This document shows positions 4,810 through 54,335 of a stretch of DNA of 64,000 bases, in pieces. Every line of letters begins with the position of its first letter. Positions within the stretch are counted from its first letter, which is position 1. Source of the stretch: Octopus vulgaris (Eukaryota). A program made the translations under genes and the position numbers. Location of the stretch: contig OX597816.1 of assembly GCA_951406725.2 (NCBI GenBank), positions 79,980,001-80,044,000 of the forward strand, given 5' to 3'. Below the pieces are notes generated by a model. The model did not search any database, had not been told where the DNA came from, and was given only the letters and a program-made list of their open reading frames with translations.

Positions 4810-7800
4810 ATTTCTTTATTCACCATAAGGTTGAGAAAAAGAGGGGACAAAACAAACGTTGGGATCAGGGTATCGAATGAGACGAAACGTATGAATAAAC
4901 AAACAATTAAAATTTATACAATTATATGAGAATGAGTGAATAACAAAAGATGAAGCGGAGGACGCGGTTGACCCCACAAACCACATACTCACACTAAAGA
5001 CTTTGCTTTCTCCTTTTTTACATTCTCGATTAAACAGGTTCTTTCACTCGCAACATACTTGCTATAGACTTCCATCTTTTACAAAACACACTTTGCGACA
5101 GGCATTTCTTCTCCAGCCTTATTTTCCGTTTCATGTGGAAAACGAAAAAGTCGATTAGCTCGAGACTGGAGATAAACATTGCAATTCCTTTTACTCTCGT
5201 CTTCCATACTACTTCTTTCGCCATAGCAACTACCGAGAGAAAACAGGCTCGCTCCTCCCTATTCAGGGAGTTCGGCGGAACTATCTTAATTACAGATTCG
5301 CTCGACAATTGAACTCTTCTCGAATGCGACAACAGGTGTTCGACATAAGCCCAGAGTTCAGTCACCTTCGGGCATTGTACAATCGCGTGCAGGACAGTTT
5401 CACTGTCCCTCTCACATCTTGCACAAACCGGCGAAGGTGCACACCCATGTCTAAAGAGCTTATCTCGAACCGGTAAAGCTCCTCTGTAACATTGCCAGGC
5501 CAGGGACTTTTGGTAATTATCCATAGGCCCCGGACCGAATGTTCTTTGGAACAGGCTGGCCAGTTGGTTTTCGTCGAAGCCCAGGGTTTCTCCCAAGACG
5601 TCGTCACACTTAAACTCTACTAACCCTCTATAGAAGAACGAGGTAGTACCCCCGCCACCGGCGTTGCCCGACTGGGATAGAAGCACGAGTGTCTGATGGC
5701 ACTCTACATACCACACGCCCAACCTCGGTCTACACTCGATCCATGGGTTCAGTTTGGTAAACGATGTGAACTGTGGAAATAATAGCTTGACGAACGGAGA
5801 CCACACCTGCTCACCGTCAAGGTAAAGCCAGAGGTGCCTAGGCCTGAGCGCATGTCTGCGCATTTTTAGCCACGGCATCCCTAACCCACCCTTCAGCGGC
5901 TTTTGACAGCAAATAGAGCGCCTTACAAGAGGTCTGCTGCCCCTCCACAAAAAGCGAAAGAACATGCGTTCCAGCTTGTTCAGCCACGAATCGGGGCAAG
6001 GCACGACGGTCAGGCGGTAAGTGATTACAGAGGCGATAAACACCTCTGCAACCTCCACCCTCCCTTTCAAGGACAGCTTTCGCTCAGACCAGGTCTGAGT
6101 TAGGAGAGCCACCTTTCTCGCCACCTCGCTTCAATTCTTCTCTATCTGGAGATCTGGACCTAACCGGATTTCAAGCATTTTCACCGGCCCTTCCGTCCAA
6201 CGTCCTACGACGCTGTCGGAAGACATCGACTTGCCCCTCCATGTGCCGAGTTGCAAGCCGACCGATTTATCCCGGTTGACTTTCGCTCCTTCCACCGCTT
6301 CGTAGACCCTTAAGGCCTCACCCACCCACTGTAGGTGCTCGACTCGGGAAACGATGATGGTGATGTCGTCCGCATACGCCGAAGCTGACTTTCCGCACCC
6401 TAGATCTTGCGGAGTGCCCCTCATAGTTTCCAACCTCCTCAGCAACGGCTCGAGGGCCAAAACGTAGAGAAGCGGGGAGAGAGGACACCCTTGACGTACC
6501 GAAAGTTCAATGCTGAACGGCTCCGAAAAGAAACCATTCACCCGAACTACCAATTCAATGTTGCTGTATAAAGAGTTGATCCATCCGCGGAAGGTCGGGC
6601 CGAAGCCAGCCGCCGTGATGACCGCCGCCAGATACTGATGGTCCACACTATCGAACGCTTTCGATTGGTCCAAGTGGACCATAGCCCCACCCTTGCCAGG
6701 AATCCTATTTACCCTTTCTAAGGCATAGCGTAGAAAGTGGAGATTGTCATGGATGGTCCTTCCAGGGATGGCGCAAGTTTGCGCCTCGCCAACAAGTTCA
6801 CCCACGACCTGCGCCAACCTTTTTGCTAAGACCTTGGCCAAACTCTTCAACTCTGCGTTAAGCAGAGTGATGGGCCGAAAATTACCAATTAAATCCCCCT
6901 TGTTTGGGTCCTTTCTTAACAGCGCTACCACCCCTCAGCTCACAGACTTAGGAATTCTCCCGTTCTGCTGCCAGTTAGTGTACTCGCATGCAAGTAGGTG
7001 CCCAAACAAGTCTGACATGCTACTATAGAGTTCGTAAGGCGATTTGTCCTCGCCGCAGTCTGCCAACATATCCTCGACTTCTTTGGCTGTGATCGGCGCC
7101 TCACAAGATTCCGTGTCCGGCCTCGATAGACGCGGCGAACCGGCTAGGAAGTCTGCGAGCTTCTCCCCGCGCTCCAGTCCGCCGCTCCTCCCGAATAGCT
7201 GGGCGAAATGATCGTGAAACACCTAGCACATCTCCTCGGGTTCGTTTACTAATCGAACATTTGGGCCCGTCAAAGATTGAATGGTTGAGTTGTTGCCACG
7301 CTGGCCCACTACCACTCGGGCCCATCCGGCTGCGTTGATCCCTTCCTGTCTCATTTCTCGGATCTTAGCCCTGACAATGCACCCTTCATGTTTAGCTTTG
7401 AGATGTTGGTCGAGTGCCAACCTCGCCGCTAACACTCATTGCCTCATCTTTTGCCTTAACTAGTTCCTTTTCTACTTTGTTTCTAGCACTAGCTAGTTCT
7501 TTGCTAAACCTAGTTGACTCAAATGTGATGGCTCTTTTCAGGGCGTACCACCATTTGTTGTTGATAATGGATCCGGTTAACGCCCTCATTACTAATTGTT
7601 TAATCCGATTCCTGTAGGCTTCACAGTCCAATAGTGACTTGTTTAGCTTCCAGTAACCTGTACTTCGTCTACACATGCTATCTATGTCGAGCGTACAGGT
7701 CACTCATTTGTGATCGCTGTAGCTGACGATATGGTGTTGTGGACAGCTAAGTATTTTCTTATCTTTCCTTCTAGTTATGATTCTATCTATGTAAGATCTG

Positions 7801-9030
7801 GACGACCCGTCGTTTCTTGCCCAGGTCCACGCTGGAGTGTCTGGGTGGTCCAGTCTGAATCGATCTGCCAATTCGAAACGACTTAGCAGATCGTTGAGGT
7901 GAGGTAATCCCCTCCTATTCTTTCTCGAGCCAACGTAATCTCCGCGTGCATCGCAAATTATGTTGAAGTCACCTAGCAATACTAACGTGTTCGATGTGCC
8001 AAGAAAATTCTCTTTCTGCCCGGCTTTTCCTTCGCAGGGAGCATAAACAGCGACCAGCCTGAACACTTTACCACTGCTGTGCGTCACATCCAAAACGACC
8101 AACCTGCCTTCCGGATCTATAAAGACGGTTCTAATCTCTAAATCCAGGTTTTTCCTGACCAGCACTGCCACTCCTCCGCTCCCTCTAGGTCGACAGGGAG
8201 AAACGTATTTCTCGTAGCCGTTTAGAAGGGGCGAAAATGCCTGCAGCCCACTCAGTCTGGATTCGGTAATTACCACTACATCCAAACGATACGACCTAAG
8301 GTCGTTAAGGAGGTAGCCTTGCTTCCAATACGACTCCAGGCCGCGAATATTTATACAACCGAGTTTAAACGAGAATGTGAAAAATTAGTCGAATGTTTAA
8401 AACTTACTGTTTTAACGGAAGAGAGGGTGTAGTTTCACCCTCCTCTTTTCTGTCTGTGAGTGTTGTGTTTTGCGAGGTCATTTTTTTTTCGCGAATTGCC
8501 TGTACAGATGGCTCGAAAAGTTCATCTGTAATGGACCGACGTCCTCCGTAAAAGATTTTTTTATTTCAAAATAGTCAGAGTTATCTATAGTATAAAATTC
8601 GACATTTTCAGAAATAGTATTATTTACATCTGTTGCGATATATTTTTTCGCCGATTTCATTAAAATAATTTTTTTCTCTTAATAGTTTATCATTTTTATT
8701 TATCGCCGTGAAGGTGTTTCTTTTTTTATGTTAGGAGGTAGTGGAGGGGTGTGTGTGTGTGTGTTTTTGTGGTGGTATGTGTGCTTGTAGAAGCGTGGGT
8801 GTTTGTAGGTGTGTGTGTGCTTGTGTGTGCTTTTTCCAGTGTGTGTGTTTTTTTAACTACGTGTGTGTTTGCGACTGTATTTGTGGGTGTGGGTGTGCTT
8901 GTCTGTCTCGGAGCATAGTCCTGTGTATCCAAAGAGGGTGGGTTTTTCCGTTTCCGTCTTCTTTTTGAAGGTTATATGGTGACCCACTCCTGGATGCTGT
9001 TGTTGTTGTTCTGAACTTCGGCAATTGGGG
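4810..9030 (-). mobile_element. L1/Tx1-clade non-LTR retrotransposon (ORF1 remnant + disrupted ORF2 + 3' UTR), 5'-truncated
   Basis: APE endonuclease (CINIRGL, VVVITES, VAVYAP, LGDFN, IDRI, SDHK), RT (NFRPITLLN, DQSKAFD, RQGCPLSP, YADD) and a C-terminal CxxC...HxxxxC motif. The 3' end AATAAAGAAA abuts a (TC)n run. The 5' boundary is approximate. Confidence 0.92.
5030..8372 (-). pseudogene. ORF2 (endonuclease + reverse transcriptase) of the Tx1-type LINE, with in-frame stops and a frameshift
   Basis: Collinear ORF pieces 7704-8285, 7392-7703, 7223-7435, 6935-7222, 6131-6931 and 5030-6124 are separated by stop codons, with one frame change near 7435. Confidence 0.9.
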
Positions 9031-28190: not shown

Positions 28191-29358
<1,168 letters not shown>

Positions 29359-42893: not shown

Positions 42894-43396
42894 ATATACA
42901 AAGAAGTAAATATATGGCACAACGAAGTACCGATATTTACTGGAAATAGCGAACGTAATAATACGACGCTAATGTATAGCTTCACCGCGTATGTACTAGC
43001 AAAAATGCGTGAGTGCAACAAACTAGAAAAAAATTTGTCTTACCTCCAGGGAGAACATCTGAAAGATGAAATACCTAGAAAAGGATAATGTGGGACCGGC
43101 GCCGGTTTCAGATTTTTCAAGATATGTCTGCACCCATAAACTTGATCTATCTTCATCAGCCAAACATATACCACGACAACACTTCAGATGTTACCACATT
43201 AATGCCAATACACTCGACTGAAACGCCGAAACGCTAACAGCACGAGAACGGTGAAGAAGTTTCAATAAATTAGTAATGCAATACTAGAGTATTGCTTTCC
43301 AGTAAAGAATAGCCCGTGAGGGAAAAATATACAAAGAAGTAAATATATGGCACAACGAAGTACCGATATTTACTGGAAATAGCGAACGTAATAATA
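42894..43396 (-). mobile_element. 503-bp non-coding retrozyme-like/PLE pLTR element with 70-bp identical direct terminal repeats, in (TA)n
   Basis: 42894-42963 is identical to 43327-43396 (period 433 bp). It contains an intact hammerhead. Confidence 0.75.
43089..43166 (-). ncRNA. Type-I hammerhead ribozyme, intact core, palindromic stem III
   Basis: Minus strand: tgtttgg-CTGATGA-agat..tcaag...cttga..atct-GAAAC-cggcgccg-GTC-ccaca. Predicted cut between 43094 and 43093. Confidence 0.85.
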
Positions 43397-43400
43397 TATA

Positions 43401-43620
43401 CTAGTAGCTAAGCCCGGTTTCACCAGGTCGGTTTGAATGATATGGCTGTAAAACCTGCTCTGTGTAAGCATTCGACTTGTTTGGGCACGCTTGCGTTAAA
43501 AAAAAAATTAGAATGACATTTTTCTGTCAAAACGCTAAAATAACTGAGAAAACAACCAGGATTCAACCAAATCAAAAAATAAGCTCAAACACCTAGCGAA
43601 CAAAGATGAACTATCCCACT
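43401..43620 (-). mobile_element. Helitron 3' terminus (extent uncertain)
   Basis: Minus strand: hairpin CCTGGT-GAA-ACCGGG, 8 nt, then CTAG|T at 43401. Confidence 0.55.
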
Positions 43621-43635
43621 TCCAATGCGCGTGCA

Positions 43636-43677
<42 letters not shown>

Positions 43678-44006
43678 TACCCCCCTTTTATATACACACA
43701 CATATTCACACAGAGTTGAAATGCTCACCCCTTCCTTCTTTATTCATCTATCATCCCTTCCTTTCTCATTCATAAACGCAAGAGTATTATTATAGTAGAT
43801 TATCTCGGTAATCATGGAAGCTATGAAAAAATACAAAGCCCAGCATCACCACCGGATCATTATACACATCTGTGTAATTTTTCGCGCATTTCCATCCAGC
43901 CATTTGACCATGAATCCCAAGACAAGAAAGAATCGCCCATGTCAAATTTATATGTATAGTTATATACATATATATATGCATATATACACATATATATATG
44001 CATAGT

Positions 44007-44041
<35 letters not shown>

Positions 44042-44049
44042 ATACGTAC

Positions 44050-44410
44050 AGAGTTTGACCACCTCCTGTACCTACACCTTAGCACCATCATGGCGTCTGA
44101 TGTGGCCTTTTAAACCAAACAATATTCTGGAAAGGCACCTACCTAGATTGCACCTCTGATTTGGACCACCAATACCTGCAGATAAGTTCTGCTCTTTGTG
44201 GATCTTAACATGACTTTTGAGGCCTCCATTGGATTTGCAGACCTTATGGATTACACTGCATTCAAAGGTTTGCACAGACGTATAGTCAGAATAGTTGATG
44301 GAGGTTTGTTTTCCATGCATTCGCTGATGAGATTTGAGGCCAGCCAAAGACAGGCATGGTCAATTACAGACTGTGCACACAAAAAGGTCATTGTCATTCA
44401 CCTTCTCGAT
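44050..44410 (-). mobile_element. LINE (probably RTE) C-terminal fragment with tandem C2H2-like fingers
   Basis: GLKSHQRMH, CSVIHKVCKSNGGLKSHVKIH and GLKGHIRRH. Degenerate. Confidence 0.5.
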
Positions 44411-44453
44411 CGTTACATTCTTCCGTATATATATATATATATATATATATTAG

Positions 44454-45429
44454 GGTATGTAGAAAAATACAACATGGACAAGAACGTATAACTCAAGAAA
44501 ACGATACAATAAACACGGACAGGACATTCGAAACCCTCAGTCTTCAGTCAAGAACCGGATCATCGTAGTAATTTCGGCTGATTAATCTTGAGATTACTAG
44601 ATCACGGCCAGCCCTCCAAGAAAAACTAAGCAACGAGCATTAGAAAAACTAAGCCGGGAGCGTAGATTTCCTGGAAGAAGGATCGAATGCATACGGACAC
44701 CAGGACAGCAAAAGGGACGAATATAAAAAAACAAAAAAATAATGGAATACAGAAACATGAAATACAGAAGCATTAACGGTGAAAACAACAACAAGTGTCT
44801 TACGACTGATAACAAGCAAACAAATTTTTTCTCTGGCGCAAGGAAAGGAGCCTTATCGGCGATGCCTATAGCGGCGGACGAAAAACAACGATGTTAACAC
44901 GACGCTGGTCAGAAGCTGAAAGGCAGATTTCGGCCGGCAGTCACGTGACAGAGAAGAGAGAAAAGAAAAGAAAGAGAAGCAACGGAAGAGAGAGAGAGAG
45001 GAGGGACAAACGCAACAAAGAGAGAGAAGAGAGAGAAAGAAGGAATCAGAGAGGAGAAGGGATGGGTGTCGAAGAGCGACCTGTGAGTGCAGAGCGAGAC
45101 AAAGAAATAGGAGGGTAGTGGAAGATTAGACCAAAGAATCAGAGGAAAGAGAAGAGAAAAAGAGGATAAGTAGAGAGAGAAGGGGACAGATCAAGTAAAA
45201 GTGAGAGAGAGAGAGAGACAAACAAAGAGTCGTACCAGTTATTAAGAATATGTGCTCACATTAATGTTAAGAGGGTACGTGGCGCCTGGAATATATGTTA
45301 AGGTATGTAGAAAAATACAACATGGACAAGAACGTATAACTCAAGAAAACGATACAATAAACACGGACAGGACATTCGAAACCCTCAGTCTTCAGTCAAG
45401 AACCGGATCATCGTAGTAATTTCGGCTGA

Positions 45430-45434
<5 letters not shown>
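44454..45434 (-). mobile_element. 981-bp non-coding element with 133-bp identical direct terminal repeats, in (TA)n (PLE pLTR/retrozyme-like)
   Basis: 44454-44586 is identical to 45302-45434 (period 848 bp). (TA)n lies on both sides. A related fragment is at 54050-54174. Confidence 0.75.
44537..44607 (-). ncRNA. Candidate non-circularly permuted (pseudoknotted) hammerhead ribozyme
   Basis: Minus strand: tagtaa-TC-tcaaga-ttaa-tcag-cc-GAAA-ttacta-cgatgatccggt-tcttga-CTGAAGA-ctga. Stem III 7 bp, stem I 6 bp and stem II 4 bp are all Watson-Crick. Confidence 0.7.
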
Positions 45435-45488
<54 letters not shown>

Positions 45489-45534
45489 GTATATATATAT
45501 ATAGATATATATATACGCACACACATATATGTAT

Positions 45535-45565
<31 letters not shown>

Positions 45566-45954
45566 CACACATATGTATATACATATGTATAATAAAACAA
45601 GAGGACGTACACATGGAATGTATTAGTCCAACGCTCAGGAGAAGTGGAAAGAAGAGTAGGTTTTTAACACTGAACATAGCTTTTCGTCAGAAGGGAAAAC
45701 GGAAAAGTTCATATATACGCTTATGTATACACATACTGTACGTGTATTTTAATATGCTGACGTATATCGTATTTATATTCACCGGCACTCTCATTTATGT
45801 GTTTAGGTATGTGTTTTTATAGTTTACTCCAGTACTATCCAGGGAAGTACACTTATCACCGGTATATAAATTTACGACACCTTGATCTGTAACTAGTTTG
45901 ATAAGCGCTAATACATGAAACTCTCGGCCCTTCAGTCACTCTTGCTTCTGCTAA

Positions 45955-46006
<52 letters not shown>

Positions 46007-46044
46007 TCATGTTCTGAGATCTGTTTTTTTTTGCATCACCAAAC

Positions 46045-46099
<55 letters not shown>

Positions 46100-46382
46100 T
46101 AATATGGGTGGCTTATTAGCAATTTAACAACCTAAAGGCAAATTTATAGACGTCACTAAGGTGATAGAGTGTACGAAGTTGTACTGGCATTGCTAGAAAT
46201 AAGTCAAACCGACTCACTATCTACAACAGCACTATCTTAATGATTGACAAGGGAGATAAGCTCCCTTTGCAGACAGTCATATCATCGTGATTTCGAATTT
46301 TGGTGTAGTCCATCTTAATTCTCATCGGTGACTCTTACCGTGCCTAGGGTTAAACTCAGCTAACCATGTCAGTTTATAAGGT

Positions 46383-46495
<113 letters not shown>

Positions 46496-46504
46496 TAGTA
46501 CATA

Positions 46505-46729
46505 ATATCTTTTATCATTTACTGGTTTCAGTCATTAGACCACAGCCATGTTTAGTACCGCTATGAAGAAATTTAGTCAAAGAAATCAACCCCAGAACAT
46601 ATTTTTTAAGCCTCGTTTTTATTCCATCAGACTCTTTTGCCGGATCACTAATTTACGGGGGCGTGAAGACACCAACACCGGTTGTCAAGCGGTTGTAGAG
46701 GACAAACACAGACGCAAACACATACACAC

Positions 46730-46792
<63 letters not shown>

Positions 46793-46935
46793 TACGATGG
46801 GCTTCTTTAAGTTTCCGACTACCAAATCCACATATGAGGCTTTATTTATAGAAAAAGACACTTGCCCACGATATCCTGGTGTAAAACAGAACTCAGAACT
46901 ATGTGGGAGGGAAACAAACTTTTTATCACACAGTC
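46505..46935 (-). mobile_element. SINE family A, degenerate
   Basis: Collinear with 12470-12876. Confidence 0.75.
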
Positions 46936-47727
46936 GGAGAGATAGTGGAGGAGGAGGAGGAGGAGGAAGAAGAGGAAGAAGAAGAAGTAGAAGAAGAGGA
47001 GGGAGATTTTATGGTTTTGATCGGCGAGGGCTGAACTGGAGTTGGGTAATAATAGTGGGTTTTAGACCAATACGCTGAAAAACCAAGTCACTCGACTACC
47101 TGCAAGTTTTGAAAAAAAATTGCTTAGTCATTTTTCATTTCGACGAATCAATAACATAGATCACCCATTGATAGATGCATCTGATCAATAAAAATCAAGC
47201 AGGATCGATAAAGGACGAAGGAATTTTACGACATTGATCTAAAAACACACTCGCATACACTCACATATATACACACCGGTTTCTACAAAATACATAAAAA
47301 GTAAAAAATGTACATATATAAAATAAATTAAATAAAAGACAAATATATAAATGTAAAAGAGAAAAATAAAAGCGGAAAAAAGTCCGCAGCAAGAATTAGT
47401 GAATAACCAATCAAAAAAGCGATGGAAATTTTAAGGCGTTACAGCTATATATTTTTAAGTTTTATTATATTTGCTTCTTTTGATGTTTAAATGAATTTAT
47501 TATTTGATAGCGAAAACACACATTAACTTACCTTGATGTAAACGAATAAAAACAAATATTAGTAATTTTACATGAAAGAGAACTGACAACGAAATACAAA
47601 GGGAGAAAATACGAAATTGTACATGCATACCATATACACTCGCGCATACAAACACACATACAGGTTAACACAAACAGAAACACACACACACCTGTACATA
47701 CACTCAAACACACTAACATTATTCATA

Positions 47728-53985: not shown

Positions 53986-54049
<64 letters not shown>

Positions 54050-54050
<1 letters not shown>

Positions 54051-54174
54051 GTATAAAAATACAAAATAAGACAAGAACGCAAAACATCCAAATAGACGAT
54101 ACAAAAAACACGGATGGGTCATTCGAAGCCTTTAATCTTCAGTCAAGAACCGGATCATCCTCGCAATTTCGGTT
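54050..54174 (-). mobile_element. Diverged terminal fragment of the 44454-45434 element family
   Basis: Shares GACAAGAACG...ACGATACAA.AAACACGGA...ATTCGAA..C...TCTTCAGTCAAGAACCGGATCATC....AATTTCGG. Confidence 0.8.
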
Positions 54175-54335
54175 GGGGACAAACAAGGACAGACAAAGGG
54201 ATTAAGTCGATTACATCGACCCCAGTGCGTAATTAAGTACCAGTTACGCACTGGGGTCGATGTAATCGACTTAATCCCTTTGTCTGTCCTGGTTTGTCCC
54301 CTCTATGTTTAGCCTCTTGTGGGTAGTAAAGAAAT
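54175..54335 (+). mobile_element. SINE family B 3' part with a 60-bp foldback at its 5' end
   Basis: 54175-54234 is a near-perfect reverse complement of 54242-54301. Confidence 0.8.

Follow-up and report, generated by a model that had tools for sequence, protein, structure and literature searches.

How does a small non-coding element come to start only a few bases past the point where a ribozyme would cut its RNA, and was the template copied into DNA a linear piece or a circle? These questions are raised by a copy in the window analyzed here, a stretch of 64,000 nucleotides of Octopus vulgaris DNA. The copy is built as the earlier note described it: identical 133-bp direct repeats (44454-44586 and 45302-45434, exact, with a period of 848) enclose a non-coding interior, with (TA)n on both sides. 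Together with the flank, the repeat extends to 144 bp at 98.6% identity, and none of the six frames, read from stop to stop, holds an open frame longer than 101 codons. We numbered the unit as u = 45302 minus the window position, which places position 848 at window position 44454 and the predicted cut, 710/711, at 44592/44591. The copy then spans unit 716-848 plus 1-848 on the minus strand. Its start at 45434 reads ATTAATCAGCC, five bases past the predicted AUC cut, as had been noticed before; the first two bases possibly belong to the (AT)n flank, which gives an offset of 5-7 nt. In agreement with the earlier note, a complete motif is present only in the inner copy, but the junction to which the note had tied it, 44586/44587, is a mere edge of the repeat overlap, and the real unit junction is 45302/45301. 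The repeat length of 133 bp is not family-wide: the 3' end is fixed and the 5' ends differ between copies. The features are as follows.

45433 to 45591, either strand: (TA)n target, 5' side.
45302 to 45434, minus strand: 5' partial unit (unit 716-848), without the cleavage strand or the stem II strand that lies upstream.
44454 to 45301, minus strand: complete 848-nt non-coding unit, U/C-rich on this strand.
About 44532 to 44621, minus strand: complete hammerhead-like motif in SGC order with its peripheral helices, in the inner copy only.
44609 to 44613, minus strand: stem II 5' strand GGCUG, located 22 nt upstream of the cut and separate from CUGAAGA; it forms 5/5 pairs with the strand before GAAA.
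44586 to 44597, minus strand: block S (stem III 3' strand, AUC triplet, stem I 3' strand), with the predicted cut between 44592 and 44591.
44568 to 44580, minus strand: block G (stem II 3' strand, GAAA, stem III 5' strand).
44541 to 44553, minus strand: block C (stem I 5' strand, CUGAAGA core).
44443 to 44453, minus strand: fixed 3' end and putative priming site, where unit 1-11 is microhomologous to the (TA)n target.
44426 to 44450, either strand: (TA)n target, 3' side.
54035 to 54175, minus strand: solo 5'-truncated copy of a sister family (family B, about 80% identical), which starts about 12 nt past the same predicted cut.

The strands of the motif follow each other as cleavage strand, GAAA strand and CUGAAGA strand (the SGC, non-circularly permuted order), and the CUGANGA and GAAA words and the UH triplet are all present. 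A descriptor of this order gave 216 matches in 28 variants over 2.3 Mb, made up of the window and selected loci, many of them copies picked on purpose, and no match in reversed or in shuffled controls. Stems I and III vary on both sides between the 848-nt family (A), B, Naiad, a family C and several single diverged copies in flanks, and compensatory changes between these families affect stems I, II and III, as counted by the descriptor and not by an alignment-based statistic. In stem II, the bases directly after CUGANGA make one of five pairs in family A, without a 10.1-11.1 pair, and none of five in family B, against five of five for the upstream strand. In A, B and Naiad, the last with a different sequence, the strand before GAAA pairs with one that lies 22 nt upstream of the cut. 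Since the stem II strand lies upstream and not after CUGANGA, block C is interrupted and the motif is not a plain member of the SGC type. It is likely a hammerhead with stem II opened from its core, that is, a predicted ribozyme.

Standard searches do not return this structure. The Rfam scan of window positions 43000-47000 (E<=1) gave no hammerhead match, only miRNA matches driven by microsatellites, and simple folding of the unit RNA does not yield the ribozyme. By eye, we rejected an HDV-like reading, whose HDV-like word has no P2 partner, and a canonical type I or III hammerhead, which would require loops of about 800 nt. High self-pairing of the unit RNA was not found: the predicted circle is no stabler than shuffled sequences (circular MFE of -129.7 vs. 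-132.8 +/- 5.5 in 25 shuffles, z=+0.57), with 46% of it paired. Across the whole window, CTGANGA occurs 41 times, vs. 24.9 +/- 5.0 in shuffles, which suggests that further ribozyme-bearing remnants are present. Other, unrelated sequences with the S-G-C order lie in the flanks of loci L013, L019, L028, L161 and L268, hence additional families exist.

Type-SGC hammerheads (HRIMA-1 and its variants) come from metatranscriptomes only, with none in genomes of known organisms according to the accessible text of Eckert et al. 2023 (PMC10085705). The octopus motif resembles them in block order, in the short linker between stems I and II and in the presence of all core bases. However, their block C is uninterrupted, whereas here the 5' strand of stem II is upstream of the cut, and the octopus motif, for which cleavage is predicted, resides in a high-copy animal retroelement. 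Opened-core variants may exist within their set. Among the tested hammerheads in the accessible parts of the literature cited here, none has a stem II discontinuous from CUGAAGA.

The family is large and young. In this 2.8-Gb genome, the 27-mer at unit 737-763 has 1384 exact matches and the 3' end of the family 849, with about a thousand copies belonging to the subfamily of the window. Units are 97-100% alike within subfamilies, and arrays of 2-6 units are present, the longest with 5.6 units. Most of the unit is covered by contigs from four sequencing runs, guessed to be of RNA, one of them showing a single dominant haplotype at a depth of 636-1034; such contigs are blind to ends and circles and were kept out of the evidence. 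Family B has 970 matches and also makes tandems of about 850 nt and inverted pairs; in four of its copies (L343, L127, L137 and L143) fold-back or inverted 5' junctions lie at or near the predicted cut. With its fixed 3' end, its 5' ends truncated to varying extents, its partial tandems and its microsatellite target, the element has the traits of a non-autonomous Penelope-like element (PLE). The 3' ends sit in microhomology between unit 1-11 and (TA)n: 84 of 101 read TTAATATAT and 4 keep the C of the unit. One copy (L357), inserted in (AGAT)n, has its 3' end at unit position 73, and its template therefore continued beyond 848/1. Both observations are consistent with internal priming in a longer or circular RNA. 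Within another copy (L165, G000:C2:29.148 Mb), the sequence skips at a short microhomology from about unit 751 to about 31.

These traits recall several known systems. Targeting of (TA)n, heavy 5' truncation and partial tandems are shared with Naiad and with non-autonomous PLEs such as MRC1, as far as these are described in the available part of Craig et al. 2021 (PMC8557442). The AT-rich DNA target and the proposed fixed internal start site of reverse transcription would have a counterpart in the Anolis Poseidon PLE, for which priming inside the RNA has been shown in vitro (available text of PMC11167929). Metazoan non-LTR retrozymes carry type I hammerheads and form circular RNA, and are presumed to be non-autonomous Penelope-like elements that move via this RNA (Cervera and de la Pena 2020, PMC7229834; Li, Clavereau, Pollet 2026, bioRxiv 10.64898/2026.07.22.740005; both from their accessible portions). 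Like them, the octopus element consists of non-coding head-to-tail units with one ribozyme per unit, in dimers to multimers, and its 848 nt fall inside the 51-972 bp range given in the accessible portion of the 2026 survey. Unlike them, it has the SGC order in place of a type I hammerhead, and its unit RNA is not highly self-paired. It also differs from the plant LTR retrozyme, since its repeat length varies freely and its ribozyme is not of type III. In short, the element is retrozyme-like in its behavior yet has no type I hammerhead, and SGC-like yet has no continuous block C.

If the RNA cuts itself, the 5' ends of copies should accumulate at or just 3' of the AUC, as the earlier note predicted. 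A first sample, 30 loci taken by best BLAST score and biased to multi-unit copies, had scattered 5' ends and no peak, and was kept out of the statistics. The second sample was selected by the 3' end only: among the first 100 pattern places 95 were taken and 92 ends called, after leaving out two duplicated loci (L063 and L148) and one beside an N gap (L176) and correcting six ends by eye. The window copy is not among these 92. Of 77 copies, 28 (36%) stop in unit 711-735 during the first pass, compared to 2 of 49 in the adjoining upstream stretch (unit 686-710; Fisher p=1.3e-5) and 5 of 82 in the adjoining downstream one (unit 736-760; p=3e-6). Five first-pass ends are exactly at 711, and the peak covers 25 nt and not a single base. 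In line with this, the 22-mer just upstream of the cut (689-710) has 769 exact genome matches vs. 1384 for the downstream 27-mer, a comparison in which polymorphism touches both words. A gapped pattern with (TA)n within 28 nt upstream listed 22 distinct loci, 21 of which end at 711-718 and one at 692; as 18 of them are on C1, this set overlaps with the 92 insertions. The predicted peak is thus present, with a sharp upstream edge, and self-cleavage as its cause is supported at the level of the family, the mechanism being read from DNA.

The window copy is a less common case. It runs through the cut once and ends at 716-718 on the second pass, so that 45302-45434 would represent a second round of copying halted 5-7 nt past the predicted cut. 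On later passes, 4 of 35 (11%) stop at the cut, a frequency below the 36% of the first pass (p=0.007) and above a background of 3% (p=0.02). From 11% vs. 3%, about 70% of such stops are related to the cut, and an accidental end there has for the window copy a chance of roughly one in four, with a wide interval given the small numbers. Hence, the earlier claim that self-cleavage set the template's 5' end is supported for the family, and for this single copy it holds only at the level of that 70%: the copy is probably one of the rarer later-pass stops with an end defined by the cut.

What kind of template crosses the cut? Two routes had been put forward, a short cleaved RNA copied in tandem, as in pLTR formation, or a monomer or circle copied for more than one unit, as in retrozymes. 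We rejected the first, in which the short RNA is joined at the start of the unit: none of the 92 insertions has its 5' end at unit 1-30, and there are no scars at the junctions. Indels are absent at the cut from all 149 pass-through units (136 of them exact) and at the 848/1 junction from all 71 units. The background drop-off amounts to 0.9-1.4 per kb across passes 0-3 and is constant over six passes. A third element comes from base changes. Clusters of A>G on one strand are what A-to-I editing is expected to leave behind. In the longest array, L185 (G000:C1:108.238-108.243 Mb) with its 5.6 units, A>G at 713, 714, 719, 729, 730, 733 and 759 is common to all six ribozyme copies, and A>G at 765 to five of the six. 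These changes all fall inside unit 713-765 on the ribozyme strand (clustering P=2e-7), and two of them alter GAAA. In two other loci, L163 with five A>G and L357 with nine, the patterns differ from this one and span the cut. The edited 23-mer of L185 was found only in its six units and in L357, and its full pattern nowhere else; overall substitution counts give no general excess of A>G, the signal being confined to these three molecules. Patterns that are unlike between molecules and identical within one array indicate that one RNA unit was copied six times. L185 thus likely records copying round a single RNA circle, an argument drawn from one array that was possibly touched by assembly polishing. 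Taken together, the seamless junctions, the constant drop-off and the A>G shared by six units favor the retrozyme route over the short cleaved RNA.

We put at roughly 68% the probability of the following reading: a young non-coding retroelement inserts into (TA)n as tandems, its RNA likely cuts itself once per 848 nt, and a borrowed Penelope-type reverse transcriptase (RT) likely copies it from linear pieces and from a circle. A tandem locus would be transcribed and each ribozyme would cut, giving a monomer that runs from 711 to 710. The nicked (TA)n end would prime inside this RNA at unit 1-11, and because this site is 138 nt from the cut 5' end, a linear monomer would yield the abundant solo copies of 113-138 nt. 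Part of the monomers would be ligated into a circle, or kept closed by the fold of the ribozyme; copying would then pass the cut site and enter a further round, with losses of about 1 per kb. Finally, a minority of multi-unit copies, probably including the one in the window, would end at the cut on a later pass, the template being a dimer cleaved in part or a circle that had reopened.

The competing explanation that best withstands these data keeps the cutting ribozyme and dispenses with the covalent circle: long copies would derive from uncut linear multimers, or from an enzyme that, having reached the cut 5' end of one monomer, switches to the 3' end of that monomer or of a different one. 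The arrays of 2-6 units are available as donors of such multimers, yet equal cutting at all sites would give equal stop rates on each pass, and these are 36% and 11%. The 4 of 35 later-pass stops at the cut are unexpected from an intact circle, and a Poseidon-type enzyme accepts unprocessed RNA in vitro (available text of PMC11167929); however, independently edited units of a linear multimer should differ from one another, just as the patterns of L185, L163 and L357 do, and the 149 units are free of indels at the cut. An enzyme that switches ends on one and the same monomer may be at work and would mimic a circle. We consider this explanation unlikely, and keep copying from both linear pieces and a circle as the preferred reading.

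The pile-up itself could also have arisen by means other than self-cleavage, namely a transcription start at 711, stalling of the enzyme in a stable hairpin, or a T/A-rich 711-735 that favors joining to (TA)n. The ends do cover 25 nt and prefer A/T positions, and one fold closes a hairpin at unit 726. However, the upstream edge of the peak is the very base that had been predicted beforehand from the structure, the TA-containing sites at 703-708 are hardly used, and stalling or a joining bias should hit every pass equally, whereas later stops are three times rarer. The comparison with other families cuts both ways. Family B has 8 of 30 stops after the cut vs. 0 of 22 before it (p=0.015, ends read by eye), but it shares the sequence of 711-730 and this replicate leaves a sequence effect possible. 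Two families of unrelated sequence that share the layout lack a significant step at their own predicted cuts (4/30 vs. 0/26 in family C, p=0.12; 4/30 vs. 2/26 in old Naiad, p=0.67), yet the core words and helices are conserved in such families. All considered, a pile-up made without the ribozyme seems very improbable, and we retain self-cleavage as its source. Growth of the arrays in DNA after insertion, by unequal crossing-over or gene conversion, which would make the shared A>G uninformative on the RNA template, is the least probable of all: direct repeats are able to recombine and one C>T is common to two non-adjacent units of L185, but most private variants in arrays are confined to a single unit (35, vs. 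10 shared between units), so that homogenization of DNA is not general, array length obeys the same per-base drop-off as truncation within a unit, and the partial 5' unit of L185 is edited too.

A bolder version of the preferred reading, which we hold at about even odds from these genomic patterns, is that an 848-nt RNA circle is made by a hammerhead wired outside the six published permutations, the chain entering between A9 and G10.1, and that the genome records its whole cycle. Linear RNA would give the short copies and circles the arrays, and A-to-I edits that kill the core would lock a circle, which is then copied into the germ line. If true, this places in an animal genome a non-circularly permuted hammerhead so far known from environmental RNA only. 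The role of the hammerhead in Penelope-like elements is stated to be unclear in the accessible text of PMC8557442. For the Anolis Poseidon PLE, hammerhead cleavage is dispensable in vitro and no reads end at the cut, according to the available part of Frangieh et al. 2024 (PMC11167929), whereas in octopus RNA that has been cut seems to act as a main template in vivo. Genomic copies, through their 5' ends, would then provide an in vivo read-out of the predicted cut, and edit-barcoded arrays make rolling-circle reverse transcription, hitherto a hypothesis for animal retrozymes, directly testable. In a literature search that left most subscription papers outside, we found no report of such a ribozyme layout in an animal genome, of 5' ends of genomic copies clustering where a PLE hammerhead cuts, or of arrays barcoded by edits.

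The same layout bears on Naiad. The accessible part of Craig et al. 2021 (PMC8557442) lists the octopus Naiad as 'HHR_half_core'; the strands of this Naiad are arranged in the same way, and we found it in this genome behind an RT piece. Its tail has no sequence similarity to the 848-nt unit, and the Naiad copies seen are old and broken, in contrast to the young 848-nt family. If the motif is what we propose, the 'half core' motifs of Naiad would be explained.

We searched for an autonomous partner with the Naiad RT piece, scoring 150 of 2725 candidates. No match to the 3' end of the unit occurs in 30 Naiad RT loci or in 12 loci of a young intact family encoding RT and GIY-YIG, except for one unrelated flanking insert. 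Besides broken Naiads, the search yielded a Penelope-like family that is young and has intact 753-aa frames of RT and C-terminal GIY-YIG. This family, seen at L285 (G000:C18:77.00 Mb), L286 (C1:90.01 Mb) and L288 (C3:134.78 Mb), inserts into (TA)n and has an upstream frame of 340-370 aa. Its 3' tail holds by eye a minimal type I-like hammerhead with a U3/A8 core variant, and the family has no sequence similarity to the 848-nt unit; it is only a candidate for the source of the helper enzyme. The window contains a fragment of a Penelope-like frame with a C-terminal GIY-YIG endonuclease (28641-29357, minus strand), kin to this young intact family. It also contains broken frames of a non-LTR retrotransposon, with endonuclease-like and RT-like parts named by eye (5030-8384, minus strand). 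Finally, an identical 70-bp direct repeat (42894-42963 and 43327-43396, 433 bp apart) adjoins a (TA)n tract and may be another small partial tandem.
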